A DNA stretch of 64,000 bases, from contig CAZQDY010000006.1 in the NCBI GenBank assembly GCA_964592075.1, forward strand, positions 3,942 to 67,941, read 5' to 3'. Below are positions 14,898-58,583 of the stretch, piece after piece (position 1 is the first letter of the stretch; each line of letters starts with the position of its first letter). The translations under genes and the position numbers were made by a program. Under the pieces are notes generated by a model. It was not told where the DNA came from, did no database searches, and worked only from the letters and a program-made list of their open reading frames with translations. This stretch comes from an uncultured Gaiellales bacterium (GTDB lineage: Bacteria > Actinomycetota > Thermoleophilia > RBG-16-64-13).

Positions 14898-14937
14898 CGC
14901 GGCACCAGTTCCTCCCCTAGTCGACAGTGCTCGTTCA

Positions 14938-17533: not shown

Positions 17534-18171
17534 TCCGTCTTCCGGATGATGACTGAGAGCAAGAACGGAGGTTCGTTCTTCACCTCGTAGGACTTGAGGC
17601 TCAGCCCGTCGAGCAGTTCCCGGATCTCCCTATCCACGTACGCCCCCCGGATGGACTCGAAGAACCCTTTTTGCACGGGGATCCAGTAGACCCACCACAC
17701 CCGCCTCAGATCGTAGAGGTACAACACGCCGTTCTCGGTGAGGCTGTCCAGGAGATTGCGGATCACCCTCGCGGGCGCCTCCCAGTGATGAAGAGAGAAC
17801 GTGCTGTAGATCAGGTCGAACTTCCCCAGAGCCTCGATGGTGCCCTCATCCGTCGCGTCGCCCAGCACGAAGGTGATGCGGTCCTGGAGTCCCTGGCTCT
17901 CCACATATTCCTCGCCGACGTGGATCATAGCGGGGAACAGCTCCAGAGCGGTGATCTGCGCAGCGGGGTGATCCCTTGCCACCGCGACCGCGGGAGTCCC
18001 CGTCCCCGCGCCGACATCGAGGTATCTACCCTTGATGTCGAGCGCCCTGAGCTTCTCCAGGAACGTCTCGTACCTCAGCCGGCTCTTCTGGGCGTGCCCG
18101 GCGTACTTCCTGGCCGCCTCCACACTCGCGAAGCTCTCGTCCTGGTGGTTCGAGACACTCCTCCCGGACAT
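17530..18171 (-). CDS. class I SAM-dependent methyltransferase
   Basis: Motif I LDVGAGTGTPAVAVA; motif II FDLIYSTFSLHHW; 213 aa. Confidence 0.8.
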   Translation of the reverse strand: MSGRSVSNHQDESFASVEAARKYAGHAQKSRLRYETFLEKLRALDIKGRYLDVGAGTGTPAVAVARDHPAAQITALELFPAMIHVGEEYVESQGLQDRITFVLGDATDEGTIEALGKFDLIYSTFSLHHWEAPARVIRNLLDSLTENGVLYLYDLRRVWWVYWIPVQKGFFESIRGAYVDREIRELLDGLSLKSYEVKNEPPFLLSVIIRKTE

Positions 18172-18338
18172 CGCTGGCCTCCGTTCACACAGTGCAGGTC
18201 GAAGAACTCCCGCACGACGGGGAACACCCGGTCGATCTCGGAGAACTCCTGGGGATGATCGAGCCCTTCGATCACCTCGAACCGCGCGCCGGCCGCATCC
18301 ACTACCCCCCTTGTCTTGTCGCGGACCGCTCCGGGCGG

Positions 18339-19184
18339 CTACCGCCAGTGCCAGTCGCGGTTGCCCTTGAGCACGTTGGCGTTCATCTCGTTGCTCAGGT
18401 GCACCAGCCAGGCCAGCGGGAAGCGCTCGGCCATGGCGCAGTAGAAGCCGCCCACCGTGTCATGCCTGGCCAGCTCCTCCTCGGTCGCCGCCAGGTAGGC
18501 CTTGGTGAACGCGCACGAGCTCTTGTCGAACTGCATGCCGGGCCGCTGGTGCCCGGGGATGATCACGTCGGCATCCATCTGCTCGATCTTCTCGACCGCG
18601 GCATACCACTCCTTGCGCTCCTCCGCGGTGATCTCGCAGGTGAAGGGATGCGCTTGGTTGAAGAGGACGTCACTGGCATAGAGGGTCTTGATCGATGGGA
18701 TCCACACCATCGTGTTGTATCTCATGTCGCCCATGACCTCGGTGATGATCTCCAGGCGCTGTCCTTCGAGCTCGAAGTGTTTCTCCTTGAGAGCCTCGAT
18801 CTTCACCTCCTTGCGGCACACGTTGTGGGCTCCGATGGTGCTCTCCCAGATCTCGATCTTCCCGAAGAACTGATCGTTGATCACGTCGGCCTCGGACGGG
18901 ATGGCGACCACTCGAGCCTTGGGGAAGGCGGCGGCGATCTCGCCGGCTCCGAAGTAGTGATCGGGGTGGGCGTGAGTGAGGTAGATGGTCGTCAGATTCT
19001 TGCCGGTGTCGATGATCTCGGTGATCACCCGATGGGCGTTCGCCAGCGTCCACTGCGCGTCGATGAGCACCGCGTCCTTCTCGCCCATCACGATGACCGA
19101 GGCGACAGCGAACCCCTCGTCGTCGCAGAAGAAGGTCTTGGTCGACAGTGGGCTGTTGGCGTTGGCGTTGAGTCTGATCTCCAT
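18339..19184 (-). CDS. MBL-fold metallo-hydrolase
   Basis: HxHxDH motif LTHAHPDHYFGAG; 281 aa. Confidence 0.8.
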   Translation of the reverse strand: MEIRLNANANSPLSTKTFFCDDEGFAVASVIVMGEKDAVLIDAQWTLANAHRVITEIIDTGKNLTTIYLTHAHPDHYFGAGEIAAAFPKARVVAIPSEADVINDQFFGKIEIWESTIGAHNVCRKEVKIEALKEKHFELEGQRLEIITEVMGDMRYNTMVWIPSIKTLYASDVLFNQAHPFTCEITAEERKEWYAAVEKIEQMDADVIIPGHQRPGMQFDKSSCAFTKAYLAATEEELARHDTVGGFYCAMAERFPLAWLVHLSNEMNANVLKGNRDWHWR

Positions 19185-23359: not shown

Positions 23360-24796
23360 CTAGTGATACACGTCCACCGACATCCCGATGCGGAGCTGCG
23401 AATACACCCACGGGGCGATCCAGTTCGGGGTCCTCACGCAACCATGGCTGGCGGGCCACGGGGGCACGCTCGACGATCCGTGGATGGCTATGTGCGGATA
23501 GAAGTAGCAGGGATAGAACATCCAGCCGACCGAGCACTCCTGCCAGCCCGTCTGCATGAGCCACACCCTGCCGTGCCCGGGCGGGGTGCCCGCCTTGCCG
23601 GTGGAACAGTGGATGATCTCGGTCACCGCGTTCTCCCTCACCACGAAGACCACCTGCCGGGTGAGGTCGACCTCCAGCCGCGCACCCGGCGCGGAGAGGC
23701 GGGGAGTGGGCGTCTGAGCCACGAAGAGACGCTGCCAGACCCCGGCGCCGGCGATACCGTCCCGGGGCAGCCGCTCCACCTTCTCGAACGCCATGACGGC
23801 GTCCCGGGTGCGGTCGTCGTAGACCCCGTCCACGTCGCCGCACGGGTAGCGGAGGGCGGTCAGGCGCGACTCGAGGAAGGCCACGAGCATCCCGCGGGAA
23901 CCCTTGGACTGAGTCGGATAGGCCGACTCGGCGGGCACCGCCGCAGGATAGCCGTCGCGAGGCATGATGGGCTGCAGGAAGGCCCGGTAGAGCATCGCCG
24001 CCATCTGGGCCCGGGTGAGGTTGAGCCCGGGGTACAGCCAGCCGTCCTCTGCACCCTCGATTATGCCCAGACGGTACGCGCCGGCCACCGATGCCACGTG
24101 CGCAGGAGCGATCAGCAGACGGTCGCGGAAGCCCGCCAGCCAGGCAGAGACCTCATCCTCGGCCGGTCTCAGGCCCGCATCTGGTCGAGGCTCCTCTGCC
24201 AGGTAAGCCTCCAGGGCGCGGACTATCAGACTGGCGGCCTGCTGCCGGGTCACCGGGACCTCGGGGGAGAACGCCGTCGGCGTGGTCCCAGACACCAGTC
24301 CCGCCCCGTAGAGCGCCGCCACCGGTTCGTAATACCAGCTGTCATGCGCGACGTCCGCGAAGGGTGTGGAAGCCGGCCCACCCTGCAGACCCAGAGCCCG
24401 CGTCAAGAAGGCGGCCATCTGAGCCCGGGTGATGGGGTCGTTGGGACCGAAGGAGCCGTCATCGTGGCCTTTGATGATCCCCTCAGCCACGAGCGCGCCG
24501 ACCGCCTCCGCGAACCACTCGTCGCCGGCTATGTCGGTGAACGCGGGAGGCGGCACGGCGTCCGCCTGCGCGACCGAGACCGCCCCGGGGAGCAGGCAGC
24601 CGGCGATGACAGCCCCCACGAGGAGAGCGCCCCGGAGCCGTGACCGGCCCCTCGCCCCTGGCCCGCACCCCGTTGGCGACCCGCACCCCATCCTCGACCC
24701 GTACCCCGTTGGCGACCCGCACCCCATCCTCGACCCGCGCTCCATGCTCGACCCCCGGACAGTCTGGTTGAGAGTGTCTGTGATGTCCGCGCCCAT
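23360..24796 (-). CDS. cell-wall protein: three SLH domains plus C-terminal L,D-transpeptidase (YkuD) domain
   Basis: Repeated FxDV…W…AV/Gly-rich SLH modules; catalytic HGSSSVPPWPASHGCVRTPNWIAPWVY; signal peptide RGRSRLRGALLVGAVIAGCLLPGAVSVAQA; true start probably near 24718, within the tandem repeat. Confidence 0.85.
   Translation of the reverse strand: MGADITDTLNQTVRGSSMERGSRMGCGSPTGYGSRMGCGSPTGCGPGARGRSRLRGALLVGAVIAGCLLPGAVSVAQADAVPPPAFTDIAGDEWFAEAVGALVAEGIIKGHDDGSFGPNDPITRAQMAAFLTRALGLQGGPASTPFADVAHDSWYYEPVAALYGAGLVSGTTPTAFSPEVPVTRQQAASLIVRALEAYLAEEPRPDAGLRPAEDEVSAWLAGFRDRLLIAPAHVASVAGAYRLGIIEGAEDGWLYPGLNLTRAQMAAMLYRAFLQPIMPRDGYPAAVPAESAYPTQSKGSRGMLVAFLESRLTALRYPCGDVDGVYDDRTRDAVMAFEKVERLPRDGIAGAGVWQRLFVAQTPTPRLSAPGARLEVDLTRQVVFVVRENAVTEIIHCSTGKAGTPPGHGRVWLMQTGWQECSVGWMFYPCYFYPHIAIHGSSSVPPWPASHGCVRTPNWIAPWVYSQLRIGMSVDVYH
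24668..24755. repeat. tandem direct repeat, 36-bp unit x2 plus a partial third copy, at the 5' end of the SLH/LDT gene
   Basis: ccccgttggcgacccgcaccccatcctcgacccgta repeated at 24668-24703 and 24704-24739, followed by a degenerate partial unit; encodes GSRMGCGSPTGY/GSRMGCGSPTGC. Confidence 0.7.
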
Positions 24797-24929
24797 CGTA
24801 CCTCACGCTTTCTCGCGCCGCCCTCGGCGCTGCGCCGTGCGCCGCGCATATTCCTTCCCTGGTCCGGGTATTGATGCACCGATGTCAACGACCCGGGCGG
24901 TGCGGACCCGGTCGGATACGAAAGGTGAC

Positions 24930-25187
24930 ATGATGGATCAACCCAAGGTGTTCGTGTACGCTCTCAGTACCTGCGGTCACTGCAGGAACGCCAAGAAGCT
25001 GCTCGACGAGAACAATATCGAGTACGATTCCGTGGACGTCGACCTCCTGCCCAAGGACGAGCTCAAGACCACGCTCGACGACGTGCGCAAGGTCAATCCG
25101 CAGGCGGCCTTCCCCACCATACTGATCGGCGACAAAGTCATAGTCGGCTATCGTGAACTCGAGATCCTGGAGGCCCTGGGACTATGA
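24930..25187 (+). CDS. glutaredoxin-like protein (CxxC thioredoxin fold)
   Basis: MMDQPKVFVYALSTCGHCRNAKKLLDENNIEYDSVDVD… (85 aa). Confidence 0.8.
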   Translation: MMDQPKVFVYALSTCGHCRNAKKLLDENNIEYDSVDVDLLPKDELKTTLDDVRKVNPQAAFPTILIGDKVIVGYRELEILEALGL

Positions 25188-25546
25188 GCGACATCGACGA
25201 GCTCTACGAGCGGCTCAAGAGGGTGAACGAGCCTAAGGGCTACTACTTCAGCAAGAACGAGACTCTCGTCAAGCAGCTGATCGCGGGCCTGCTCACCAAC
25301 AAGGAGCGCTACGGGTACATGTGCTGCCCCTGCCGTCTCGCTTCGGGGAACCGCGAGAACGACAAGGACATCATCTGCCCTTGCGACTACCGCGAAGCCG
25401 ACGTCAAGGAGTACGGCAGCTGCTACTGCAACCTGTACGTCTCGAAGGAGTGGAACGAGGGGACCGTCGAGAACGTGCCGGTGCCCGAGCGCCGGCCCGA
25501 GGAGAAGGTCGCCTGGATGAAGAGCTGGCCGGGATTCGACGCGTAG
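25184..25546 (+). CDS. ferredoxin:thioredoxin reductase catalytic (beta) subunit-like protein
   Basis: FTR-C Cys pattern CCPCRL…CPCDY…CYCNLY; ATGA overlap with the glutaredoxin gene. Confidence 0.75.
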   Translation: MSDIDELYERLKRVNEPKGYYFSKNETLVKQLIAGLLTNKERYGYMCCPCRLASGNRENDKDIICPCDYREADVKEYGSCYCNLYVSKEWNEGTVENVPVPERRPEEKVAWMKSWPGFDA

Positions 25547-32750: not shown

Positions 32751-34079
32751 ATGAGACCTATGAGCTTGTTCTGGGGCTGCACCATACCGGCCCGCTTCCC
32801 CTTCATCGAAAAGGCCAGCCGGGTGGTCCTTCGCGACCTCGGAGTGGAGCCCGTGGACGTGGCCGGGTTCACCTGTTGCCCCGAGACCACGCTGGTGAAG
32901 GCCGCGGACGAAGAGACCTACTACCTCACCGCCGCCCGCAACCTGGCCCTGGCCGGGCAGAACGCGCCGCTCCTCACGCCCTGCAACGGCTGCTATTCCA
33001 CCTTCAAGTCGGTCCTCGCCGATCTCAAGGTCGACTGGCGGCTCGAGCAGCGGGTCGACCGGCGCCTGGCCGCCGCCGGCCTGTCTCTTTCCAAGGACGT
33101 GGACGTCAGACATCTGGTGGAGTGGCTGAGCGAGGACCTCGGCCCCGCGGCCCTCAGCAAGCGTCTGGTCAAGCCGCTCTGGGGGATGAAGATCGCCGTG
33201 CACTACGGGTGCCATCTGTTGAGGCCGAGCCCCGCCATCCGGTGGGACAGCCCCACGGCGCCCACCAAGTTCGAGCAACTGGTGAGGGCTCTAGGCGCGA
33301 CCGTGGTCGACTACAAGACCAAGATGGATTGCTGCGGCAACGCGCTCGATAGGGTGGGCGAGCGGCAGGCCGCCATGGACATGATGCAGCGCAAGCTGAC
33401 CGACCTCAACGAGGTGGGGGTCGATGCCCTCGTGGTCTCGTGCCCGTCCTGCTTCCTTCAGTTCGATCTGAACCAGGCCGCCTTCGTTCGCAATTCGGGC
33501 TCGGACGGCCTGCCTGTCTTCTACATCACCGAGCTGATCGCGCTGGCGCTCGGCTACGATCCGGCCGAGCTGGGTCTCGCGATGCATCGGGTCACTCCGG
33601 TTGTCTTCCTCGAGAAATGGGCCGCCAAGCTGGAACAACGCGATGTGCTCGCCCGCTCGTTCAACCTCGCCGAACTCGAGATCTGCGCCGGCTGCCGGGC
33701 CTGCGACGCCGACTGCCCCGTGGCCCTCGCCGAGGAGGACTTCGTACCCTCCACCATCATCGGCCGTCTGCTGGCCGGCGAGGCGGAGGCCGTTCTCGCC
33801 GAGCCTGACCTCTGGCGGTGCACCGACTGCATGACCTGCTTCGAGCGTTGCCACAGCCGTATCGGCATGGCGCAGGTCTTCGAGAAGCTGAGGAGACTCG
33901 CGGGAGAGCGTGGACACCTACCGGCCGCCGTGCGTTCCAGCTACCAGGCCTTCGTCGATAACGGCGTCCTCGGCACGGGGCGCCCGGCTGTGAGGGAGAA
34001 GCTGGGTCTCCCCCCGTTGCCCGTCAACGGCTCCGAGCAACTCAAGAGCATCCTGGCGGAGCCGGGGGCCGAACGATGA
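32751..34079 (+). CDS. HdrB-HdrC-like fusion protein: two CCG (Cys-rich) domains followed by two 4Fe-4S ferredoxin motifs
   Basis: CCG motifs FWGCTIP…FTCCPE…C and HYGCHLLRP…DCCGN…CPSC; C-terminal CAGCRACDADCP and CTDCMTCFERC; stop overlaps the start of the downstream glutamate-synthase amidotransferase gene. Confidence 0.75.
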   Translation: MRPMSLFWGCTIPARFPFIEKASRVVLRDLGVEPVDVAGFTCCPETTLVKAADEETYYLTAARNLALAGQNAPLLTPCNGCYSTFKSVLADLKVDWRLEQRVDRRLAAAGLSLSKDVDVRHLVEWLSEDLGPAALSKRLVKPLWGMKIAVHYGCHLLRPSPAIRWDSPTAPTKFEQLVRALGATVVDYKTKMDCCGNALDRVGERQAAMDMMQRKLTDLNEVGVDALVVSCPSCFLQFDLNQAAFVRNSGSDGLPVFYITELIALALGYDPAELGLAMHRVTPVVFLEKWAAKLEQRDVLARSFNLAELEICAGCRACDADCPVALAEEDFVPSTIIGRLLAGEAEAVLAEPDLWRCTDCMTCFERCHSRIGMAQVFEKLRRLAGERGHLPAAVRSSYQAFVDNGVLGTGRPAVREKLGLPPLPVNGSEQLKSILAEPGAER

Positions 34080-35293
34080 GCCGCCGCGGCGCCCCAGGAC
34101 GAGAGTTCTCCCCCCGCCCCGCCTACCGGGAGGAAGCCGCCCAGCGCATCCTCGGCGGTTGTGGCCTCATCGGCATCTGCGACCAATCAGGCGAACGGAT
34201 GAGCGGGGAGCTCGTGCTGCGCGGCATGGCCTCCATGCACGACCGCGGCAACGGTCTGGGTGGCGGCTTCGCCGGCTACGGCATCTACCCGGAACTGCCG
34301 CACCTCTTCTGCTTCCACCTGCTCTATGACGACGACGTGGCCAAGGAAGACACCGAGTTCTACCTCAAGAAGCACTTCCGAGTGGTCATGGACGAGCCCA
34401 TACCCACGAAGCCCATCCGCGGCATCGAGGACGAGCCCATCCTATGGCGGTACTTCCTCGACATCGGGGAGGAGAGGCTGCACGAGACCCAACTGAGCCC
34501 CGAGGACTACGTGGTCCACGCGGTCATGGACGTCAACAGCTTCATCGACGGAGCCTTCGTCGCCTCGTCGGGCAAGAACATGGGGGCCTTCAAAGGCGTG
34601 GGCTTCCCCGAAGAGATCGGCGAGTTCTTCCGCATCGGCGACTACAGGGGCTGGACCTGGACCGGACACGGCCGTTTCCCCACCAATTCCCCCGGATGGT
34701 GGGGCGGGGCCCATCCGTTCGCTCTGCTCGACTATTCCATCGTCCACAACGGCGAGATCAGCTCCTACGGCATCAACGAGCGCTATCTGGAGATGTTCGG
34801 GTACAGGTGCTCGCTGCAGACCGACACCGAGGTGGTCACCTACCTCTTCGATCTGATGCTCCGCCGGCACGGACTATCCGTGGAGATGGCCTGCAAAGCG
34901 TTGGCCAGTCCCTTCTGGAAGGACATCGACCTCATGCCCGAGGAACAGCGCAGGCTGTTCACCGCGATACGGATGGTCTATGGGTCGGCCCTGCTCAACG
35001 GCCCATTCGCGGTGGTCTTGGGCATGACCGACGGCATGGTCGCTCTGAACGATCGCATCAAGCTACGCCCGCTGGTGGCCGCTCAGCATGGCGAGGTGGT
35101 CTATGTGGCCAGCGAGGAATCGGCGATCCGCGAGGTCTGTCCTCGCCCGGAGCGTAGCTGGATGCCCTTGGCCGGCGAGCCGGTGGTCGCCCGCGTGAGC
35201 GACAAGGGCCGGCAGAAGTCCATCTCCCAGGGCAGGCAGAGCGTCGGACAGAGGCGCGTCGCCCAGAGCGCGACCGCGCCGGGGGTGTTCTGA
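34076..35293 (+). CDS. glutamate synthase, class-II glutamine amidotransferase domain protein (archaeal-type split GOGAT, domain 1)
   Basis: …GGCGLIGICD… N-terminal nucleophile Cys region; …GHGRFPTNSPGWWGGAHPF…HNGEISSYG… typical Ntn amidotransferase; a processed propeptide or alternative start is likely. Confidence 0.8.
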   Translation: MSRRGAPGREFSPRPAYREEAAQRILGGCGLIGICDQSGERMSGELVLRGMASMHDRGNGLGGGFAGYGIYPELPHLFCFHLLYDDDVAKEDTEFYLKKHFRVVMDEPIPTKPIRGIEDEPILWRYFLDIGEERLHETQLSPEDYVVHAVMDVNSFIDGAFVASSGKNMGAFKGVGFPEEIGEFFRIGDYRGWTWTGHGRFPTNSPGWWGGAHPFALLDYSIVHNGEISSYGINERYLEMFGYRCSLQTDTEVVTYLFDLMLRRHGLSVEMACKALASPFWKDIDLMPEEQRRLFTAIRMVYGSALLNGPFAVVLGMTDGMVALNDRIKLRPLVAAQHGEVVYVASEESAIREVCPRPERSWMPLAGEPVVARVSDKGRQKSISQGRQSVGQRRVAQSATAPGVF

Positions 35294-36816
35294 TGGCCTA
35301 CACGACGTTCATCCCCCCGGAGTTCCGGGTGGTCATCGACAGGGAGGCCTGTCAGCAGTGCGGCCGCTGCGCCCAGCAGTGCGGCTGGAACGTCTACACG
35401 TTCGACAGCGAGGAGAGACTGCCGCACCCCGATCACAGCAAGTGCGCGGCTTGCCACCGCTGCGCCACCTTCTGTCCCGCGGGCGCCATAACCATCAAGA
35501 AGAACGACCTGGCGTTCAAACAGTCGGACAGCCTGTCGCCCGACCTGGTGAAGGCCATATGGAGGCAGGCCGAGACGGGGGGCGTGCAGCTCACCGGCAT
35601 GGGCAACGACAAGCCCTACCTGCGCGTCTTCGACCACCTCTTGCTGGACGCGTGCCAGGTGACCAACCCCTCCATCGACCCCCTGCGGGAGCCCATGGAG
35701 ATGCGGACCTTCCTGGGCCGCAAACCCGACTTTCTGGAAGTGGCCGAGAGCGGGCGCGCGGGTGGCGATCCCCGGCTTCTCACCGAGCTGGACCGGCAAC
35801 TGCAACTGGAAACTCCCATCATGTTCGGGGGCATGAGCTACGGCTCTGTGTCGCTGAGCGTGCACCGCTCCCTGGCCATGGCCGCGGCCGAGCTGGGCAC
35901 CTTCATGAATACCGGCGAGGGCGGACTGCATTCCGACCTGGAACCGTATCAGGATCACATCATCGTGCAGTGCGCTTCGGGCCGCTTCGGAGTGGATTCC
36001 GGCTACCTGCGGGCCGGCGCCGCCGTCGAGATCAAAATCGGTCAAGGAGCGAAGCCCGGCATCGGCGGGCACTTGCCCGGGGAGAAGATCGACTACCAGG
36101 TCTCGATCACCCGCATGATCCCCCAGGGCACCGACGCCCTCTCCCCCGCGCCGCATCACGACATCTACTCCATCGAGGACCTACGGCAGCTCATCTATGC
36201 TCTCAAGGAGGCCACCGGGTACAAGCCCGTCTCGGTGAAGATCGCCTGCGTGCACAACGTGGCCGCCATCGCCTCAGGCGTGGTCAGGGCGGGCGCCGAC
36301 ATCATCTACCTCGACGGTTTCCGCGGCGGCACCGGGGCCTCTCCCACCATCATCCGCGACCATGTGGGCCTCCCCGTCGAGATCGGCATCGCCACGGTCG
36401 ACCAGCGTTTGCGCGACGAGGGCATCCGCAACCGCGCCTCCATCGTGGCGGCCGGCGGCATCCGCGGCTCGGCCGACGTGGTCAAGGCCATCGCTCTGGG
36501 AGCAGACGCCTGCGCCATCGGGACGGCGGCCCTCGTGGCTCTGGGTTGCCATGTCTGTCAGAAGTGCCACACCGGCTGCTGCTCCTGGGGCATCTGCACG
36601 CAGCGGCCGGAGCTGACCCGGCGCCTGGACCCGGAGTGGGGAGCTTCGCAACTCGTCAACCTGGTGCGCGCCTGGACCCACGAGATGGCCGAGGTGCTCG
36701 GCGCCCTGGGCGTGAACGCCATCGAGAGCCTGCGCGGCAGCCGCGAGCGGCTGCGCGGCTTGGGCCTGGACAAGACCACTCTCGACATCCTGGGCGTGAA
36801 GCCGGCCGGCCTGTGA
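35293..36816 (+). CDS. glutamate synthase FMN-binding domain protein with N-terminal 2x[4Fe-4S] ferredoxin domain (archaeal-type GOGAT, domain 2)
   Basis: CQQCGRCAQQC and CAACHRCATFCP motifs; FMN/Fe-S core …GEGGLHSD…KIGQGAKPGIGGHLPGEKI…; 3Fe-4S-type Cys cluster CHVCQKCHTGCCSWGIC; ATGA-coupled to the upstream gene. Confidence 0.9.
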   Translation: MAYTTFIPPEFRVVIDREACQQCGRCAQQCGWNVYTFDSEERLPHPDHSKCAACHRCATFCPAGAITIKKNDLAFKQSDSLSPDLVKAIWRQAETGGVQLTGMGNDKPYLRVFDHLLLDACQVTNPSIDPLREPMEMRTFLGRKPDFLEVAESGRAGGDPRLLTELDRQLQLETPIMFGGMSYGSVSLSVHRSLAMAAAELGTFMNTGEGGLHSDLEPYQDHIIVQCASGRFGVDSGYLRAGAAVEIKIGQGAKPGIGGHLPGEKIDYQVSITRMIPQGTDALSPAPHHDIYSIEDLRQLIYALKEATGYKPVSVKIACVHNVAAIASGVVRAGADIIYLDGFRGGTGASPTIIRDHVGLPVEIGIATVDQRLRDEGIRNRASIVAAGGIRGSADVVKAIALGADACAIGTAALVALGCHVCQKCHTGCCSWGICTQRPELTRRLDPEWGASQLVNLVRAWTHEMAEVLGALGVNAIESLRGSRERLRGLGLDKTTLDILGVKPAGL

Positions 36817-36839
36817 ACAGCCGACGCGAGGAGCAGGTG

Positions 36840-37712
36840 ATGACACTCGACTCAGCCACAGTCCGCAGGGTACCCACCGGCCCGGCCCGCAAGGGGCCCA
36901 CGGGTATCGAGCCGGCCCGCCTCACCGCCGGACAGCCGGGGACCACGCGAGGCGCCGCGGCGCGAGAAGGCAGGCGGGCGGTCATCGACGGAACGAGCGT
37001 GTACTACAAGACCCTCAACGAGCAGATACGGGAAGAGATCGAGCAGGGCGCTGTCGAGGTGGTTCTGGAGAACATAGTCGGCCAGCGCTACATAGGCACC
37101 GGCCTCGCCTACCCGGATGTGACCGTGACCGTGAACGGCGTGCCCGGCAACGACCTGGCGGCTTTCATGAACGGCCCCACCCTCGTGGTCAACGAGAACG
37201 CCCAGGACGGCGTGGCCAACACCATGAATTCCGGTCTCGTGATCGTCAACGGTAACGCCGGCGACGTGCTCGGCTACGGCATGCGAGGCGGCTCCGTGTA
37301 CGTGGGGGGTGACGTCGGCTACCGCGTGGGCATCCACATGAAGGCCTTCGGCGCGAGCCTGCCGCTCATCGTCGTCGGCGGTCACGCCCGGGACTTCCTC
37401 GGAGAGTACATGGCGGGGGGCGAGATCGTGGTGCTGGGGATCGGCGACGACGACTCCTCCGTCGTCGGGTCGTATGTCGGCACCGGCATGCACGCGGGAG
37501 TCATGTACGTGCGCGGCCACGTGGCCGCGCACCAACTCGGCAAGGAGGTCCGCGTGGAACAACCCGGCGAGGCCGACCTTGTCCGTATTGCAGCCATCGT
37601 GGACGACTACTGCCGGGTGATGGAGCTCGACCCGCGGGAAGTGCTGCAGAGACCGTTCGTCAAGATCTATCCGTTCACCTCGAGGCCTTACGGCCGCATG
37701 TATGTCTACTAG
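36840..37712 (+). CDS. glutamate synthase GXGXG-motif domain protein (archaeal-type GOGAT, domain 3)
   Basis: Repeated beta-helix GxGxG-type segments (…LVIVNGNAGDVLGYGMRGGSVYVGGDVGYRVGIHM…VVLGIGDDDSSVVGSYVGTGMHAGVMYVRGHV…); ATG 36840 preceded by gaggagcagg. Confidence 0.85.
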   Translation: MTLDSATVRRVPTGPARKGPTGIEPARLTAGQPGTTRGAAAREGRRAVIDGTSVYYKTLNEQIREEIEQGAVEVVLENIVGQRYIGTGLAYPDVTVTVNGVPGNDLAAFMNGPTLVVNENAQDGVANTMNSGLVIVNGNAGDVLGYGMRGGSVYVGGDVGYRVGIHMKAFGASLPLIVVGGHARDFLGEYMAGGEIVVLGIGDDDSSVVGSYVGTGMHAGVMYVRGHVAAHQLGKEVRVEQPGEADLVRIAAIVDDYCRVMELDPREVLQRPFVKIYPFTSRPYGRMYVY

Positions 37713-39080: not shown

Positions 39081-39096
39081 ACAGCACCCGAAGACC

Positions 39097-39141
39097 GACA
39101 GCCACCCTGCTGTCCGCCCGGCGGCCCCGGCCGCCGGGCGG
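39097..39141 (+). terminator. tandem GC hairpins downstream of glnA
   Basis: gacagc-caccct-gctgtc followed by ccgcccggcggcc-cc-ggccgccgggcgg (13-bp perfect stem). Confidence 0.55.
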
Positions 39142-39283
39142 TGCATCCACCGGTGACGCCGCAGACACCGAAGCCGGCGAAGCCCCGCTGGCAAGCGAAG
39201 CCGGGCTGGCTGACAGGGTCCTGCTACCGTGGGACGGCCGCGAGTGGAAATCCTCGTCTACAAGACTGACGCTGAGGTGTAGG

Positions 39284-39369
39284 CTGTGGGCGTACACGTC
39301 GGTGGAGGAGTCGCGATGCGCCCATCGCGCAGCCGGAACCGGCGTGTATGCCCACAGCCCCACTCATAG
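39284..39369 (+). promoter_or_regulatory. candidate cis-regulatory leader: 14-bp inverted repeat enclosing a strong SD plus 17-codon Arg-rich upstream ORF, immediately before ybjQ
   Basis: ctgtgggcgtacac (39284-39297) pairs with gtgtatgcccacag (39344-39357); nested hairpin gcgatg-cgcc-catcgc; ggaggag then ATG at 39316 encodes MRPSRSRNRRVCPQPHS* ending at 39369, 10 nt before the ybjQ TTG. Confidence 0.3.
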
Positions 39370-39379
39370 GGAGAAGACC

Positions 39380-39712
39380 TTGGACCACAGGCTGACCACT
39401 ACCGCTCTCACCATCCCCGGCTACCGCGTCACCCGCACTCTGGGTGTGGTGCGCGGGGTGACCGTGCGGGCCCGCTGGATCGGCAGCCAGATCACCGCCT
39501 CGCTCCGCACGCTCGGCGGCGGGCAGATCCCCGAGTACATCGAGCTATGCGAGCAGACCCGCGCTGAGGCCTTCGCCTGGATGGTGCAGCATGCCGAGCA
39601 GATGGGCGCCAACGCGGTCATCGCCGTCAGATACGACGCCACCGACCTGGGCAACAACATGACCGAGGTGTTGGCCTATGGCACCGCCGCCATCGTCGAG
39701 CCGGAGCAGTAG
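39380..39712 (+). CDS. ybjQ: YbjQ/UPF0145 family protein (DUF74)
   Basis: …ALTIPGYRVTRTLGVVRGVTVRARWIGSQITASLRTLGGGQIPEYIELCEQTRAEAFAWMVQHAEQMGANAVIAVRYDATD…; TTG start with RBS agggagaag. Confidence 0.7.
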   Translation: MDHRLTTTALTIPGYRVTRTLGVVRGVTVRARWIGSQITASLRTLGGGQIPEYIELCEQTRAEAFAWMVQHAEQMGANAVIAVRYDATDLGNNMTEVLAYGTAAIVEPEQ

Positions 39713-39735: not shown

Positions 39736-40077
39736 CTACGCCAACGCCGACACGCCCGTTTCGCCCGTGCGGATGCGCAGGCATTCGCCCATCTCAAGGA
39801 CGAAGATCTTGCCGTCGCCGATGCGGCCGGTGCGGGCGCCGCGCGCGATGGCGTCCACCGCCTGCCAGACGTTGTTGTTGCTGACCGCCACCTCCACCTT
39901 GATCTTGTGAAGGAGGCCGCCCCTCTCCACATGGCTCCGATATACCTCAGCGATGCCCTTCTGCCTGCCCCGGCCCATGACGTCGGAGACGGTCAGGAGA
40001 AAGACCTCCTCTTCCTCCAGCGCGGCCATGACCTCGTCCAGCCTGTCGGGCTGGATGATGGCGATGATGTACTTCAT
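39736..40077 (-). CDS. glnK: P-II nitrogen regulatory protein (GlnK-type), copy 2
   Basis: MKYIIAIIQPDRLDEVMAALEEEEVFLLTVSDVMGRGRQKG…; 113 aa; T-loop lacks the Tyr51 uridylylation site (YRSHVERG). Confidence 0.9.
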   Translation of the reverse strand: MKYIIAIIQPDRLDEVMAALEEEEVFLLTVSDVMGRGRQKGIAEVYRSHVERGGLLHKIKVEVAVSNNNVWQAVDAIARGARTGRIGDGKIFVLEMGECLRIRTGETGVSALA

Positions 40078-40210: not shown

Positions 40211-40552
40211 CTAGCCGATGGCCACGCAGCCGGTCTCCCCGGTGCGGATGCGTATGCACTCCTCGAGATCGAGCACGAAGATCTTGCCGTCACCGATGTT
40301 GCCCGTCCGCGCCCCTCTGGTGATGGCCTCGATGGCCGGGATGGCGAACGCGTCGTTCACGGCGATCTCCACCTTGACCTTGCGAAGCAGCCCTCCGCGC
40401 TCCACATGGCTGCGATAGACTTCGGCGACCCCCTTCTGCCGGCCCCGGCCCATGACGTCCGACACCGTGATGAGGTTGACCTCTTCTTCCTCCAGCGCGG
40501 CCATGACCTCGTCGAGGCGGTCGGGCTGGATGATGGCGATGATGTACTTCAC
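40211..40552 (-). CDS. glnK: P-II nitrogen regulatory protein (GlnK-type), copy 1, directly downstream of amtB
   Basis: MKYIIAIIQPDRLDEVMAALEEEEVNLITVSDVMGRGRQKG…; tandem paralog of 39736-40077 with a 133-bp spacer. Confidence 0.9.
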   Translation of the reverse strand: MKYIIAIIQPDRLDEVMAALEEEEVNLITVSDVMGRGRQKGVAEVYRSHVERGGLLRKVKVEIAVNDAFAIPAIEAITRGARTGNIGDGKIFVLDLEECIRIRTGETGCVAIG

Positions 40553-40575: not shown

Positions 40576-41811
40576 CTAGCCGACCAGCGTGTAGGCGGAT
40601 TCACTGTGCTGGGTGAGATCGAGGCCTATGCCCTCGTTCTCTTCGCTGACACGCAGGCCCACGACCTTGTCCACCAGCTTCAACAATCCATACGAAAGGA
40701 CGAAGGAGTACGCGGCGCACACCACCAGGGCGACGAACTGCCACAGGAGCAGCCTGCCGTTGCCGTGGAAGACACCGTCCGCGCCTGCGGGATTGATGAC
40801 AGTGGTGGCCCAGAAACCGGTGAGGAGGGCGCCCAGCATGCCGCCTATACCGTGCACCCCAAAGGCGTCGAGCGAGTCGTCGTAGCCGAGCCTGCCCTTC
40901 ATGACCACGGCGGCCAGATAGCACACCAGCCCCGCGAGGGCGCCGATGCCCAGGGCACCGAGCGGCGTCACGAAGCCCGCGGCCGGAGTCACGGCCACCA
41001 GACCGGCGACCGCGCCTGATATCGTCCCCAGGGCCGTGGGGCGCTTGCCCTTGATCCACTCCACCGCCGCCCAGGCAACAGCCGCCGCCGCGGCGCCCAG
41101 CTGCGTCGCCACGAAGGCCGACACCGAGAGCCCGTTCGCTCCCAGAGCGCTGCCGGCATTGAAGCCGAACCAGCCGAACCAAAGCAGAGCCGCCCCCAGG
41201 ATGGCGAACGGAAGGTTGTGGGGTGGCGAGGTGTCCGGGTACCCCTTCCGCTTGCCCAAGACGAGCGCCGCGGCCAGGGCCGCCATGCCGGCGTTGATAT
41301 GCACCACCGTGCCGCCCGCGAAATCGAGGGCTCCCAGGTCGCGCAGCCACCCGCCCACTCCCCAGACCCAGTGCGCCATGGGGTCGTAGACGATGGTCGC
41401 CCAAAGAACGGAGAAGAGCAGAAAGGCGCTGAACTTCATGCGTTCCGCGAAAGCGCCGATGATGAGGGCCGGCGTGAGGACGGCGAACATCATCTGGAAG
41501 ACCATGAAGAGCGTGTGCGGGATGGTCGCGGCATAGTCGGCATTGGGTTCGGCGCCCACCCCGATCAGAGCCGCCCAGCTGAAGTCCCCGATGAATCCTC
41601 CGTGGTCGGGGCCGAAGGCCAGACTGTATCCGAAGACCACCCACTGTATGCTCATCACTCCGAGCAGCATGAAGCACTGCATCATAATCGAGAGCACGTT
41701 CTTCCGCCGGACCAAGCCGCCATAGAAGAAAGCCAGCCCCGGAGTCATCAGCATCACGAGCGCGGTGCTGACGATCATCCAGGCGGTGTCTCCGGTGTCG
41801 ATCTCCGCCAT
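40576..41811 (-). CDS. amtB: ammonium transporter (Amt family)
   Basis: MAEIDTGDTAWMIVSTALVMLMTPGLAFFYGGLVRRKNVLS…; 11-TM Amt signature; start set at MAEID (the 5' extension in the ORF track is unlikely). Confidence 0.9.
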   Translation of the reverse strand: MAEIDTGDTAWMIVSTALVMLMTPGLAFFYGGLVRRKNVLSIMMQCFMLLGVMSIQWVVFGYSLAFGPDHGGFIGDFSWAALIGVGAEPNADYAATIPHTLFMVFQMMFAVLTPALIIGAFAERMKFSAFLLFSVLWATIVYDPMAHWVWGVGGWLRDLGALDFAGGTVVHINAGMAALAAALVLGKRKGYPDTSPPHNLPFAILGAALLWFGWFGFNAGSALGANGLSVSAFVATQLGAAAAAVAWAAVEWIKGKRPTALGTISGAVAGLVAVTPAAGFVTPLGALGIGALAGLVCYLAAVVMKGRLGYDDSLDAFGVHGIGGMLGALLTGFWATTVINPAGADGVFHGNGRLLLWQFVALVVCAAYSFVLSYGLLKLVDKVVGLRVSEENEGIGLDLTQHSESAYTLVG

Positions 41812-41882
41812 GTCTACCCTCCTCCATCCGGCCGGCCAGGGCTCCACCAGGAGCCGACCACTCGCCGGCGCGATTGCCGTGA

Positions 41883-41996: not shown

Positions 41997-43649
41997 CTAA
42001 CTCGTGATCAGACTCCGCGCCTTCAGCCCCAGACCCAGCCGCTCCTTGTGCTCGGTCTCAAAGGGGTTGAGGCCGCTGATCTCGGCGATCTTCTCCAGGC
42101 GATAGCGGATGGTGTGCCGGTGCGCGTAGAGCTCGGCCGCGGTCTCAGTCAGACGTTCGTTGTTCTTGAAGAAGACGGCAAGGGTCCGGGTGAGCTGGGT
42201 GCCGTTCGCTTCGTCATAACGGTCGACCGGCCCGATGGTGTCCTCGTACAGGGCCTGGATTTCTCCGGGGTCCCGCTCGTAGATGTCGAGCAGGAGCCGG
42301 TAGGTGCCCACGTCATAGAAGTGCATCACGCTGCCGGGCCCCTCCAGTTTCCGCCCCACTTTGAGGGCGACCAACGCTTCCTGGTAGCCTCTATCCATCT
42401 GCGCGGCGTACGCCGTGAATCCCCCGATGCCCACCGAGGTGCTCAGGCCGACGGTGTTCTGAGCCGACTCCTGGAGCGAGGCCGCCAGCCGTCGGAGCGC
42501 TATGGGATCATGAGCGGTGGCCCCGCAGACGAAGATCACCACCCGCCCCGACTTGAGACTGACGAGCGACGAGACCTCCGACCGGGCGACAAGGCGAGAG
42601 GAATGAGTGAAGAACTGTTCCATCTTCCTGTCCAGCTCCTCCTGGTCGAGACCCCGCTGGTGGACCAGCCCGTCGGCCTCGTCGATCCCCACCAGGACCA
42701 CCGCGGCCCCCTGACTCAGATCGCATCCCAGGAAAGAACCCCGCCTCAGCAGCGAATCCCCCGACCTCTCCCCTCCGCTGATGACGTCGTCGACGAAGTC
42801 GCCCTTCAGACGCACCTCGGTCTCGAAACGCACCCGGTCTTGAGCCATCTCGAGAGCCGCGATGGTCGCTGAGTGCTCGAGGATCAGCACCTCGTTGTCC
42901 GATAGAGCCTCGGCGTCGGTCAGCGCGCACAGATACCCGAGCCGCTCACGGCTGGCCACGATCGGCAGGGCGAACATCGAGGCCATAGAGTCCTCCTCGA
43001 CCCGGAAGGGCTTCTGGCTCGAACCCATCACCGCGAAACGCTCCCGCGTCTGCGGGCGTCGCAGGCCGGCGACGAGGTCGGCCGCCGCCACGGGCAGGTC
43101 GCCAGAGGCCGCCAGGAGCTCGAACGACGCGTCCATGATCACCACGGGGCTCTCCAAGAGACGCGACGCTTCATCGGCAAGCTCCACCCAGCCCCCTCCC
43201 CGGATGACTATGCCCAGCAGATCCCGATGGACCGACTGGGACTGCTCGAGCTGAGAGGCCTGACGATTGATGATCACCTCGGTGGCGTCCTGCATGAGGC
43301 GGGTCCAACGCAGGCTCTGCGGCACCTCAACGATCGGGAACTTCCTCTTCTCCGCCAGCTCGATGATGTCGGCGGGCAGGTTCTCCACAAAACGGGTGGT
43401 CTTCACGAAGAGCGCGGCGGCGTCGGCCATCATCACCCGTTTGCAGAACTCGCGCTGCCTCTCGGGATCGCCTTTGACGGCGAAGAGAGTGGAAAGGACC
43501 AACTCCCCTCCCGACAACCACTCGGCGATGTCGGGGACCTCCCCCACCGTCACCGAGGTGACCCGGCGCTCCAGCCCGTCCTCGCCCGCGAGCAACCGGG
43601 CGTCGTCCAGCACGGGAAGCGCAAGGATCTGTCTGACCGTCACAGGCAT
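41997..43649 (-). CDS. PucR-family transcriptional regulator (PucR C-terminal HTH plus N-terminal sensory/GGDEF-like region)
   Basis: C-terminal HTH …TETAAELYAHRHTIRYRLEKIAEISGLNPFETEHKERLGL…; 550 aa. Confidence 0.8.
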   Translation of the reverse strand: MPVTVRQILALPVLDDARLLAGEDGLERRVTSVTVGEVPDIAEWLSGGELVLSTLFAVKGDPERQREFCKRVMMADAAALFVKTTRFVENLPADIIELAEKRKFPIVEVPQSLRWTRLMQDATEVIINRQASQLEQSQSVHRDLLGIVIRGGGWVELADEASRLLESPVVIMDASFELLAASGDLPVAAADLVAGLRRPQTRERFAVMGSSQKPFRVEEDSMASMFALPIVASRERLGYLCALTDAEALSDNEVLILEHSATIAALEMAQDRVRFETEVRLKGDFVDDVISGGERSGDSLLRRGSFLGCDLSQGAAVVLVGIDEADGLVHQRGLDQEELDRKMEQFFTHSSRLVARSEVSSLVSLKSGRVVIFVCGATAHDPIALRRLAASLQESAQNTVGLSTSVGIGGFTAYAAQMDRGYQEALVALKVGRKLEGPGSVMHFYDVGTYRLLLDIYERDPGEIQALYEDTIGPVDRYDEANGTQLTRTLAVFFKNNERLTETAAELYAHRHTIRYRLEKIAEISGLNPFETEHKERLGLGLKARSLITS

Positions 43650-56120: not shown

Positions 56121-58583
56121 CTAGGCCTCCTTCTGCTTCTTGATCCGCATGCCGTAGAACGAGCGGATGACGAAGTACAGCGAGATCAGGAAGAACACCG
56201 CCGCCAGGATCCAGGTCAGCGTGTTGTTGCCTTGCCCATCGACGATGCTCACGGCCAACTCGACCGCCAGCAGGCCGAACAGCGTGGTGAACTTGATGAT
56301 CGGGTTCAGGGCCACCGAGGAGGTGTCTTTGAACGGGTCGCCCACCGTGTCGCCGATGACGGCGGCCGCGTGCAGGTCGGTGCCCTTCTCCTTGAGGTCC
56401 ACCTCGACGATCTTCTTGGCGTTGTCCCAGGCGCCACCGGCGTTGGCCATGAAGACGGCCTGGAACAGACCGAAGACTGCGATGGAGATCAGGTAACCGA
56501 TGAAGAAGAACGGCTCCAGGAAGGCGAAGGCGAGCGTCCCGAAGAACACGGCCAAGAAGATGTTGATCATCCCCTTCTGCGCGTACTGGGTGCAGATGCC
56601 GACGACCTTCTTGCTGTCTTCGACGTTGGCGGTCCCGGTCTCCACATCGAGATTGATGTGGCGTTTGATGAACTCCACCGCACGATAGGCACCGGTGGTA
56701 ACGGCCTGGGTGGCCGCGCCGGTGAACCAGTAGATCATGGCGCCGCCCATGACGAAGCCGAGCAGGAACGGCGGGTGCAGCAGGGAGAGATTCTCGACGT
56801 TGACGGTGAGCTCCTCGGTGAGCATCATGATGATGGAGAAGATCATCGTCGTCGCGCCGACCACCGCCGTGCCGATGAGGACCGGCTTGGCCGTGGCTTT
56901 GAAGGTGTTGCCGGCTCCGTCGTTCTCCTCGAGGTTCTCCTTGGCCACATCCCAATCGGGCTTGAAGCCGAAGTCCTTCTGGATCTCTTCGTCCACGCCT
57001 TCGATCTGCTCGATGGTGGAGAGCTCATACACTGACTGAGCGTTGTCGGTCACCGGTCCGTACGAGTCCACGGCGATGGTCACCGGGCCCATGCCCAGGA
57101 AACCGAAGGCCACGAGGCCGAATGCGAAAACGGCAGGCGCCAGCATGATATCGCCCAGTCCCTGGGTGCTCACGATGTAACCGACGCCCATCAGGACCAT
57201 GATGGCAAAACCGATGTAGTAGGCGCTGTAGTTGCCGGCCACGAAACCGGAGAGGATGTTGAGCGAAGCTCCGCCCTCTCTGGTCGAGGTGACGACTTCG
57301 TTCACGTGCTTCGACTTGGTGGAGGTGAACACCTTCACGAGCTCAGGGATGAGGGCGCCGGCCAAGGTGCCCATGCTGATGATGATGGAGAGCATCCACC
57401 AGTAGTCGGGATGCGCTTCGCCCACCAACGTGCCACCGCCGATCAGCAGGTAGGAGACCACGAAGGTGAGTGCGATGGAGATGACCGAGGTGAGCCAGAC
57501 CAGCGAAGTGAGCGGGCCCTCGAAGTTCATCTTCCTTGCGTTCTTGTAGCGCGCCTTGGTGATCGCACCGTTCAGGAAGTATGACGCGCCACTGGAGACG
57601 ATCATCATGACGCGCATGGCGAAGATCCACACCAGGAGAGCTACCTGGATCAGCGGATCGGTGACCGCGAGGATGATGAAGGTGATGAGGGCCACACCGG
57701 TGACACCGTACGTCTCGAAACCGTCGGCGGACGGGCCGACCGAGTCGCCCGCGTTGTCGCCCGTGCAGTCGGCGATGACGCCGGGGTTACGGGCGTCGTC
57801 TTCTTTGATGTTGAAGACGATCTTCATGAGGTCGGAGCCGATGTCGGCGATCTTGGTGAAGATACCGCCGGCGATCCTCAGCGCGGCGGCGCCCAACGAT
57901 TCGCCGATGGCGAACCCGATGAAACACTGGCCGGCATAGTCGCGCGGGATCCAGATGAGGATGATGAGCATGATGACGAGCTCGACGCTGATGAGCATCA
58001 TGCCCACGCTCATGCCGGAACGCATCGGGATGGCATGGATGCCGTACGGCTTGCCCTTGAGGCTTTCGAAGGCCGTGCGGGAGTTGGCATAGGTGTTGAC
58101 CCTGATGCCAAACCAGGCCACGCCGTAGCTCCCAAGGATGCCGATGATGCTGAAGACCAGGATGATGATCACCCTGCCGGCCGAGAAGTCGCTGAGGGCG
58201 CCGAAGTACACCCCGATCACGATGGCGATGAAAATCCAAAGGACGATCAGGAACTGGCCCTGCTTCAAGAGGTAGGTCTTGCAGGTCTGCCAGATGAGCT
58301 CGGAGATCTCTTTCATAGACCTGTGAGCGGGGAGTCTGCGGAGCTGATAGAAGACGACGATGCCGAACAGGAGACCGAGACCGCAGATGATGAGACCCAA
58401 GGCCAAGAGAAGGCTGCCGGATATGCCGTGGAAATCCACCTGGTTCAGCTCGGGCAGTACCAGCTCTGCCTCGCCGGCCTGCGCTACCGGCGCTAGGACC
58501 AGCAAGAAGACCGCCGCGACGGCAAAGAGAAGGGCCAACCTTCCCCAGCGACGCCTCGGCGCTTTACGCGGTTTGACTTCCAT
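56121..58583 (-). CDS. hppA: membrane-bound proton/sodium-translocating pyrophosphatase
   Basis: 820 aa; conserved M-PPase motifs …GDNAGDSVGPSADGFETYGVTG… and …DTVGDPFKDTSSVALNPIIKF…; N-terminal extension with a signal-like segment. Confidence 0.9.
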   Translation of the reverse strand: MEVKPRKAPRRRWGRLALLFAVAAVFLLVLAPVAQAGEAELVLPELNQVDFHGISGSLLLALGLIICGLGLLFGIVVFYQLRRLPAHRSMKEISELIWQTCKTYLLKQGQFLIVLWIFIAIVIGVYFGALSDFSAGRVIIILVFSIIGILGSYGVAWFGIRVNTYANSRTAFESLKGKPYGIHAIPMRSGMSVGMMLISVELVIMLIILIWIPRDYAGQCFIGFAIGESLGAAALRIAGGIFTKIADIGSDLMKIVFNIKEDDARNPGVIADCTGDNAGDSVGPSADGFETYGVTGVALITFIILAVTDPLIQVALLVWIFAMRVMMIVSSGASYFLNGAITKARYKNARKMNFEGPLTSLVWLTSVISIALTFVVSYLLIGGGTLVGEAHPDYWWMLSIIISMGTLAGALIPELVKVFTSTKSKHVNEVVTSTREGGASLNILSGFVAGNYSAYYIGFAIMVLMGVGYIVSTQGLGDIMLAPAVFAFGLVAFGFLGMGPVTIAVDSYGPVTDNAQSVYELSTIEQIEGVDEEIQKDFGFKPDWDVAKENLEENDGAGNTFKATAKPVLIGTAVVGATTMIFSIIMMLTEELTVNVENLSLLHPPFLLGFVMGGAMIYWFTGAATQAVTTGAYRAVEFIKRHINLDVETGTANVEDSKKVVGICTQYAQKGMINIFLAVFFGTLAFAFLEPFFFIGYLISIAVFGLFQAVFMANAGGAWDNAKKIVEVDLKEKGTDLHAAAVIGDTVGDPFKDTSSVALNPIIKFTTLFGLLAVELAVSIVDGQGNNTLTWILAAVFFLISLYFVIRSFYGMRIKKQKEA

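Follow-up and report, generated by a model that had tools for sequence, protein, structure and literature searches.

Glutamate synthases (GOGATs) of the GltBD and ferredoxin-dependent types (PDB 1EA0, 1LLW, and 7MFM) are built from three domains, with an N-terminal nucleophile (Ntn) cysteine preceded by a presequence, flavin mononucleotide (FMN), and an iron-sulfur (Fe-S) cluster motif. The same features are found in a gene cluster of an uncultured Gaiellales bacterium that we analyzed within a 64-kb stretch of contig CAZQDY010000006.1 (GenBank assembly GCA_964592075.1; hereafter the window), but here each domain is a protein of its own, most of the central domain is missing, the FMN subunit carries an additional ferredoxin domain at its N terminus, its cluster motif includes a fourth cysteine, and no GltD-type Fer4_20 or Pyr_redox_2 domain was detected in the operon open reading frames (ORFs) or the neighbors examined. 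The physiological electron donor of such split (archaeal-type) GOGATs is poorly defined. For methanogens, a putative F420-dependent split GOGAT with an FrhB-like "subunit 4" was suggested but left unproven (Kaster et al. 2011, PMC3087415), and an F420-dependent glutamate synthase (FGltS) is also discussed in PMC9012536. The Gaiellales locus likewise encodes a separate, additional redox module that would serve for electron input, but this module resembles subunits B and C of heterodisulfide reductase (Hdr; thiol/Fe-S) rather than FrhB (F420/FAD), and Pfam detected neither an FrhB-like nor a GltD-like donor subunit among the operon ORFs. We propose that the locus encodes a four-subunit split glutamate synthase in which an HdrB-HdrC fusion protein acts as a dedicated electron-input module that oxidizes a dithiol, a reading toward which we lean, if only slightly.

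The fusion protein shares with methanogen HdrABC (PDB 5ODC, 7BKB, and 8RVU) its two CCG motifs and two HdrC-type cubane motifs. It differs in being one chain, B then C, with no HdrA in the operon, in coming from an actinobacterium, and in having as its probable partner the FMN subunit of GOGAT, to which electrons would flow from thiol to flavin. To our knowledge, the actinobacterial host makes neither CoM nor CoB. In the HdrD, GlcF, and GlpC fusions the ferredoxin part is N-terminal and the CCG part C-terminal, the opposite of the order seen here; an example of the C-then-B order among the homologs is our protein P0152. The thiol:fumarate reductase TfrAB of Methanothermobacter provides a precedent for CCG domains that oxidize thiols for a flavoenzyme. 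A CCG Fe-S subunit that oxidizes thiols and passes the electrons to a metabolite-reducing flavoenzyme is also what we propose here, with the differences that the acceptor would be glutamate synthase and that TfrB has an SdhB-like N terminus ahead of its CCG domains. For the "succinate operon" of Pseudoclostridium, a thiol-based shuttle has been proposed to link Flx-Hdr with fumarate reductase (PMC7282089), and in some lineages that possess the fusion an adjacent Hdr complex would similarly regenerate the thiol. Hdr-like complexes can depend on lipoate-binding proteins, as in the sulfur-oxidizing sHdr-LbpA system (Cao et al. 2018, PMC6067878). Relatives of the window locus (our loci L088, L094–L096, L098, and L103) also tie HdrB/C-like genes to a lipoyl carrier or to lipoate genes, but the carrier there is a 76-aa E2-type lipoyl domain and the partner is GOGAT.

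Domains, cluster ligands, and fold of the four proteins

The fusion protein was analyzed with Pfam and NCBIfam profiles and with an AlphaFold2 (AF2) model compared by Foldseek. Pfam identified two copies of the CCG domain (5.6e-29), within residues 1–290, followed by Fer4_8/9/10/17 matches at residues 308–371, so that the domain order is B then C. NCBIfam HdrB (TIGR03288) matched residues 4–289 with 233.8 bits, below the cut-off of 345.15, and HdrC (TIGR03290) matched residues 310–425 with 55.9 bits (cut-off 160). The protein therefore has the two CCG motifs and the fold of HdrB, yet falls short of the equivalog cut-off and has no linked HdrA, and it has both HdrC motifs, invariant, yet fused C-terminally to the B part. 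The HdrB-like part (residues ~1–295) contains the CCG motif cysteines C10, C42, C43, C78, and C81 and, in the second motif, C154, C194, C195, C231, and C234. The HdrC-like part (residues ~300–442) contains two CX2CX2CX3C motifs, C312–C322 and C357–C367, and a conserved R-x-K-L-G-L motif is found at the C-terminal end. All 10 CCG and 8 ferredoxin cysteines are invariant in alignments of 79 close and 17 distant members, down to 35% identity. The AF2 model (pLDDT 90.6) is a compact globular protein whose B part superposes on HdrB 8rwn_B with a TM score of 0.92 and a root-mean-square deviation of 2.0 Å at 37% identity, and whose C part superposes on HdrC 5odc_C. Together, these analyses bear out the original prediction, made by a model from the sequence alone, of two HdrB-type CCG domains followed by two HdrC-type motifs, although the protein has 442 residues and not the 443 first given. 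The start at position 32751 agrees with the N termini of homologs.

Profile scores place the B part nearer to the catalytic HdrB of methanogens (234 bits) than to SdhE (131 bits) or to GlcF and GlpC (33–43 bits), and the TfrB family NF004898 scores 59.7 bits against a cut-off of 385. Signatures flanking both noncubane sites are common to the fusion and catalytic HdrB, at 33–37% identity. These comparisons bear on a second function that could be assigned to the CCG part, in which it would connect to the quinone pool as proposed for SdhE, GlpC, and GlcF, making GOGAT a menaquinol-dependent, membrane-associated enzyme. The second-best NCBIfam match is indeed the SdhE "membrane anchor" of methylmenaquinol:fumarate reductase (130.7 bits). 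However, the HdrB score is far above those of SdhE, GlcF, and GlpC, no quinone-related genes are linked, and the AF2 model is compact and globular, a point that has no transmembrane or hydrophobicity test behind it. The module also occurs in Lokiarchaeia and other Asgard archaea, many of which presumably lack quinones. We regard a quinone connection as very unlikely.

Pfam confirmed that the three ORFs downstream encode, consecutively, the subunits of a split GOGAT as predicted: a class II amidotransferase, a ferredoxin-FMN (Glu_synthase) subunit, and a GXGXG subunit. Across the four proteins every profile expected (CCG, Fer4, GATase, Glu_synthase, and GXGXG) was recovered. Matches of the amidotransferase to GATase_2/6/7 are weak but consistent. 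Its nucleophile is Cys29 (nt 34160–34162), in the motif CGLIG, and would become N-terminal after processing of a 28-residue propeptide (nt 34076–34159). In 76 of 78 loci (among L001–L084) the propeptide RPxYxEExxx[RK]I[LH]GG/CGLMG, where the slash marks its end, is kept at the protein level, and only in L072 and L081 does the protein begin with Met directly followed by the nucleophile Cys; about 17 residues preceding the Cys are conserved across the 78 loci. Immediately before the catalytic Cys codon of the window there is no canonical start codon. Translated propeptides of this kind are known for bacterial GltB and PurF, and the protein-level conservation makes the ATG at 34076 plausible. With propeptide and Cys both conserved, the protein should be a working Ntn amidotransferase once the propeptide is removed.

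In the FMN subunit, the ligands of the N-terminal 2x[4Fe-4S] domain are C20, C23, C26, and C30 and C51, C54, C57, and C61, and the FMN barrel has the GltB-type cluster motif C-x2-C-x2-C-x4-C (C419, C422, C425, and C430); all 12 cysteines are invariant in nine subunits from different phyla. The subunit matches GltB and ferredoxin-GOGAT structures at 1e-65 to 1e-68, and the GXGXG subunit matches FwdC/FmdC structures at 1e-8. The ferredoxin domain of the FMN subunit (35335–35508, + strand) also resembles the MvhB polyferredoxin and the ferredoxin part of HdrA (for HdrA, 33% identity over 61 aa in the window and up to 38% over ~85 aa in relatives), and it is the only match obtained when the window is searched by tblastn with HdrA. 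In methanogens, HdrA and HdrC are part of one complex.

The GOGAT-like genes might instead encode a paralogous enzyme such as N-methylglutamate synthase MgsABC, or the adjacency of the fusion gene might be functionally meaningless; of all the explanations weighed here, we give this one the least credence. MgsABC, too, has a separate protein homologous to each of the three GltB domains and is encoded near a glutamine synthetase-like gene. The gene order in the window is, however, amidotransferase, FMN, GXGXG, rather than mgsA-mgsB(GXGXG)-mgsC beside gmaS and N-methylglutamate dehydrogenase genes. The neighbors encode GlnA, P-II, and Amt of the typical kind, mgd-type genes for N-methylglutamate dehydrogenase are missing, and the FMN subunit retains both the Fe-S cluster motif and the ferredoxin domain, which implies net redox chemistry. 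Adjacency by chance is ruled out by a linkage that is kept across phyla while the flanking genes change, as described below.

Distribution and conservation of the gene order

Homologs of the fusion were sought in GTDB, with one genome per species, in a set of 80 diverse metagenome loci, and exhaustively among 1.8 billion cluster representatives. More than 1,000 homologs were obtained, named "heterodisulfide reductase subunit B/C" or [quoted passage not shown] The exhaustive search showed that B-then-C fusions of ~440 aa form one family reaching down to 33% identity, below which rank HdrB proteins of the ordinary 290-aa kind and a small number of C-then-B fusions. By source name, the bacterial members come from Actinomycetota, Bacillota, Nitrospirota, Planctomycetota, and Deltaproteobacteria (Ca. 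Acidulodesulfobacterium), and the archaeal members from Lokiarchaeia, Ca. Freyrarchaeum, and Ca. Borrarchaeum. In GTDB the fusion is present in 495 species, one of which has a closed Coriobacteriia chromosome (OY968780.1); the best 80 loci come without exception from uncultured Actinomycetota (Thermoleophilia, Gaiellales, Coriobacteriia, and Anaerosomatales). Linkage was counted by tblastn for the 76 loci whose sequence extends 3.7 kb or more beyond the fusion, and the three GOGAT genes lie directly downstream of the fusion in 74 of them. The same order, fusion-amidotransferase-FMN-GXGXG, is kept in the 80 metagenome loci wherever the flank is present, bringing the fusion beside a split GOGAT in more than 150 related loci of bacteria and archaea. 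At 33–40% identity the four-gene order is still found in six contexts: a Deltaproteobacteria-labeled metagenome-assembled genome (MAG), a Planctomycetota MAG, a Lokiarchaeia contig, another archaeal contig that also encodes Cdc6, prefoldin, and Pcc1, and two further contigs. Downstream of the GOGAT genes, glnA is found in 45 of the 71 loci with enough flank. The genes upstream of the fusion are common to the closest clade only, and the four genes therefore constitute the conserved unit.

Within the window, the stop codon of the fusion overlaps the amidotransferase start, as predicted, and it is here that the ATGA is found (34076–34079). The junction between the amidotransferase and FMN genes, to which the ATGA had been ascribed, is a TGATG with a 1-nt overlap (35291–35295). 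A gap of 23 nt separates the FMN gene from the GXGXG gene, which has a Shine-Dalgarno sequence and an ATG, and glnA follows on the same strand after 36 nt and is probably part of one operon with the GOGAT genes. Across loci, between 2 and 218 nt separate the fusion stop from the Cys codon, so that tight translational coupling is local and no family trait. Of the stoichiometric complex that had been predicted from the overlaps, the association of the fusion with GOGAT is strongly supported by the conserved gene order, from which we infer a complex, whereas the overlap argument itself does not generalize. A promoter scan of the region from 32.3 to 39.8 kb detected no promoter-like site, and terminator-like matches were at chance level, making the scan uninformative on operon structure.

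Two loci depart from the common arrangement. In L088, of the Bacillota type, which has another gene order, the fusion is at the end of the GOGAT cluster. In L092 (10001–12856), unfused HdrB-like (304 aa) and HdrC-like (141 aa) proteins are encoded ahead of a ferredoxin-FMN subunit; genes for an amidotransferase or a GXGXG subunit are not adjacent, and one for glutamate dehydrogenase is nearby. The pairing of HdrB and HdrC with the FMN subunit alone suggests that HdrBC interacts directly with the ferredoxin-FMN subunit, and L092 may represent a minimal or ammonia-dependent variant. The same locus could be read in favor of outward electron flow, in which the FMN subunit would oxidize glutamate and HdrBC would reduce a disulfide in a catabolic or redox-balancing role, or in favor of HdrBC being a redox-sensing regulatory subunit; methanogen HdrB does reduce disulfides. 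Nevertheless, almost every locus encodes an amidotransferase with the conserved Ntn-Cys propeptide, genetic linkage extends to glnA, P-II, and amt, and glutamate oxidation (approximately −0.13 V, a textbook value) cannot readily reduce lipoamide-type disulfides. To these outward-flow and regulatory roles we assign a probability marginally below that of the quinone connection.

Several other loci deserve mention. A Coriobacteriia MAG (L083) encodes a second, stand-alone Glu_synthase gene (531 aa; 17406–19001, − strand) between the GOGAT cluster and glnA, and a Planctomycetota MAG (L090) has a HEAT-repeat protein gene (13999–15087) inserted between the FMN and GXGXG genes. A bioreactor-metagenome contig (L165; ENA UOUL01004254, 8140–13098) encodes a fusion 98.9% identical to that of the window and an FMN subunit 99% identical, and it probably derives from the same or a sister population. 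Natural HdrBC-GOGAT fusions were looked for among long homologs, but P0047, P0261, P0136, P0141, and P0157 lack any GOGAT domain and resemble ORFs that were miscalled or frameshifted, and P0187 is a TPR-CCG protein.

Proposed mechanism and candidate electron donors

In the mechanism that we favor, the HdrB-like part would work against the direction seen in methanogens, with its two noncubane [4Fe-4S] clusters converting a dithiol into a disulfide. The two electrons would travel along both HdrC-type clusters, enter the FMN subunit by way of the two clusters in its ferredoxin domain, and continue through the subunit's own cluster to FMN, which would reduce 2-iminoglutarate to glutamate. The amidotransferase, once propeptide removal exposes Cys1, would release ammonia from glutamine, and the ammonia would be channeled to form the imine with 2-oxoglutarate; the GXGXG subunit would have a structural role. 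The gene neighborhood, with glnA, two P-II genes, and amt, is consistent with glutamate formation dependent on glutamine and 2-oxoglutarate. By analogy with relatives, the dithiol would most likely be a protein-bound dihydrolipoyl group. Dihydrolipoyl dehydrogenase would keep it reduced at the expense of NAD(P)H, a task that an HdrABC-MvhD complex would take over in some lineages. Textbook potentials are approximately −0.29 V for lipoamide and −0.13 V for 2-oxoglutarate plus NH4+/glutamate, and glutamine hydrolysis adds pull, so the energetics of such a reaction are reasonable.

The relatives in question encode the partners that would be expected if the fusion handles a dithiol/disulfide couple. 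Lipoate-related genes are found within the GOGAT cluster in four loci, in two gene orders, in or near the Bacillota-type subfamily. In L088 the order is GlnA-amidotransferase-FMN-GXGXG-Lpd-LipB-LipA-lipoyl domain-HdrBC, with the extra genes at 4536–7970; Lpd (TIGR01350, 538 bits), LipB, and LipA all score above their NCBIfam cut-offs, and the free lipoyl domain is a 76-aa protein with a TSKA motif. The order in L094 (7134–9387) is amidotransferase-FMN-GXGXG-Lpd-LipA-fusion, and in L095 (3–1046) and L103 (3–712) it is Lpd-lipoyl domain-fusion-amidotransferase-FMN. The free lipoyl domains of these clusters are 73–76 aa long, with the TSKA motif conserved. In two further lineages, the four genes have neighbors for HdrC (159 aa), for HdrB (273 aa), and for a fusion of HdrA with MvhD (HdrA::MvhD, 756 aa). 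In one of them, the L096 group, HdrC-HdrB-HdrA::MvhD follows the four genes directly and is accompanied by an LplA/B ligase (L096, 8933–13703; L098, 10845–15503). Neighboring HdrCBA-MvhD genes were also detected in L097, L107, L112, L115, L104, and L124, in the last of which they are upstream on the opposite strand. Such neighbors suggest that in the HdrA::MvhD lineages GOGAT is connected to a bifurcating Hdr complex by a thiol shuttle. Of the two inputs originally predicted, thiol/disulfide or quinone, it is the thiol that gains support from the lipoyl, Lpd, and Hdr genes of relatives, and none was found for quinone.

Several observations weigh against dithiol oxidation. By tblastn, Lpd, LipA, LipB, the lipoyl domain, LplA/B, and HdrA were detected neither in the 64-kb window nor in any of the ~85 actinobacterial loci, and thioredoxin-type genes are likewise missing from both. 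The sHdr-LbpA systems, whose cluster combines HdrA, two HdrB/C pairs, a GcvH-like LbpA, a lipoate ligase, and sulfur transferases, therefore have no counterpart here as regards lipoate genes and HdrA, while GcvH-like LbpA and sulfur transferases were not searched for; the parallels in relatives are partial. Co-clustering with lipoyl or Hdr genes is limited to ~6 lineages among the more than 150 loci, and the ferredoxin-like domain of the FMN subunit could accept electrons from ferredoxin directly. In an alternative reading, the fusion belongs to GOGAT but is a mere Fe-S wire or docking module that conducts electrons from ferredoxin or another redox protein with no thiol chemistry. Most loci, the window included, encode no thiol carrier or disulfide reductase nearby, and the usual assumption is that a split GOGAT with a ferredoxin domain draws its electrons from ferredoxin. 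Yet a two-cluster ferredoxin domain is already present in the FMN subunit, and four more clusters would be needless for conduction; the fusion retains the complete HdrB signature at both noncubane sites, at 33–37% identity to catalytic HdrB; and the presence of either Lpd plus a lipoyl domain or HdrABC is a recurrent feature of the cluster, seen in several lineages. We consider a mere wire unlikely, although less so than the quinone connection or outward flow. For the dithiol-oxidizing module that we prefer, a lipoyl arm is possibly the substrate and the leading candidate, by analogy with the relatives; in the window organism the donor is not encoded nearby.

The only thiol-redox genes near the operon in the window are a pair 7 kb upstream, in which an ORF with a Grx domain at its C-terminal end overlaps, stop to start, an ORF for FeThRed_B, a homolog of the ferredoxin:thioredoxin reductase catalytic chain. 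Together the two proteins could make up a disulfide reductase system that depends on ferredoxin. Synteny of the pair is confined to the close actinobacterial clade (including L084, L145, and L172), and serA and an ABC transporter lie between the pair and the operon, which makes the pair a weak lead to the donor.

Genomic context and significance

The features of the window are collected in Table 1. Beyond glnA, the YbjQ-like, P-II, amt, and PucR-type regulator genes form a nitrogen-control neighborhood beside the GOGAT operon. The window has a G+C content of 66%. An Rfam scan of it produced no match, including in the 290-nt noncoding stretch 39081–39380 that follows glnA, and a tRNA scan of it found none. 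Elsewhere in the window, the SLH-domain L,D-transpeptidase, the BcrAD/BadFG-DUF2229 "CoA enzyme activase," and the membrane H+-pyrophosphatase fit an anaerobic actinobacterium with an S-layer-anchoring envelope.

Table 1. Features of the 64-kb window, with positions counted from its first nucleotide
Feature	Position	Strand	Evidence or remark
HdrB-HdrC fusion, 442 aa	32751..34079	+	Pfam and NCBIfam matches, invariant cysteines, AF2 model
Glutamate synthase amidotransferase subunit (GltB domain 1), 405 aa	34076..35293	+	GATase_2/6/7, propeptide
Ferredoxin-FMN subunit (GltB domain 2), 507 aa	35293..36816	+	Glu_synthase 5e-139, Fer4
GXGXG subunit (GltB domain 3, FwdC-related), 290 aa	36840..37712	+	GXGXG 1.2e-30
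Glutamine synthetase GlnA, 443 aa	37749..39080	+	Gln-synt_C 5e-132, Gln-synt_N 4.5e-30
YbjQ-like gene	39381..39712	+	
P-II gene, first of two in tandem	39736..40074	−	
P-II gene, second of two in tandem	40211..40552	−	
Ammonium transporter amt	40576..41847	−	
PucR-type regulator	41997..43649	−	
SLH-domain L,D-transpeptidase	23360..24796	−	Three SLH repeats, PG_binding_1, YkuD
ORF with C-terminal Grx domain	24429..25187	+	
FeThRed_B ORF	25184..25546	+	
BcrAD/BadFG-DUF2229 "CoA enzyme activase," 1066 aa	44465..47665	+	
Membrane H+-pyrophosphatase	56121..58583	−	

No Pfam or NCBIfam family covers the fusion above its cut-off, no PDB entry contains a split GOGAT or an HdrB-HdrC fusion, and full-text literature searches yielded no description of an Hdr-like GOGAT subunit, the papers inspected treating the two enzymes apart from each other, although subscription-only texts were beyond their reach and may hold a prior description. 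With no paper, curated family model, or solved structure found, the expectation that electron input through HdrBC had not been described has held up. The locus encodes a split GOGAT with a putative new electron-input module that is widespread and mis-annotated, and it hints at a hitherto undescribed, probably thiol-driven supply of electrons for nitrogen assimilation. That it defines a new and widespread class of GOGAT, in which the reductant is a dithiol instead of NAD(P)H, ferredoxin, or F420 and HdrB-type clusters work as a dithiol oxidase, is a broader claim about which we are more doubtful than confident.

If true, the class would extend over Actinomycetota, Bacillota, Desulfobacterota-like bacteria, Planctomycetota, Nitrospirota, and Asgard archaea, the lipoate/thiol redox pool would be wired directly to nitrogen assimilation, and in some lineages an electron-bifurcating HdrABC-MvhD complex would be connected to GOGAT. 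For split GOGATs in general, the locus provides a concrete and testable candidate for electron input, a conserved fourth subunit bearing the catalytic machinery of heterodisulfide reductase. Hundreds of genes annotated as "heterodisulfide reductase subunit B/C" in MAGs of Actinomycetota, Asgard archaea, and others, which are now read as markers of energy metabolism, would call for reannotation. Should the fusion indeed oxidize a dithiol, GOGAT biochemistry would gain a fourth class of reductant, HdrB-type noncubane clusters would acquire a nonmethanogenic, assimilatory role, and the link between Hdr-like proteins and lipoate would reach beyond sulfur oxidation.

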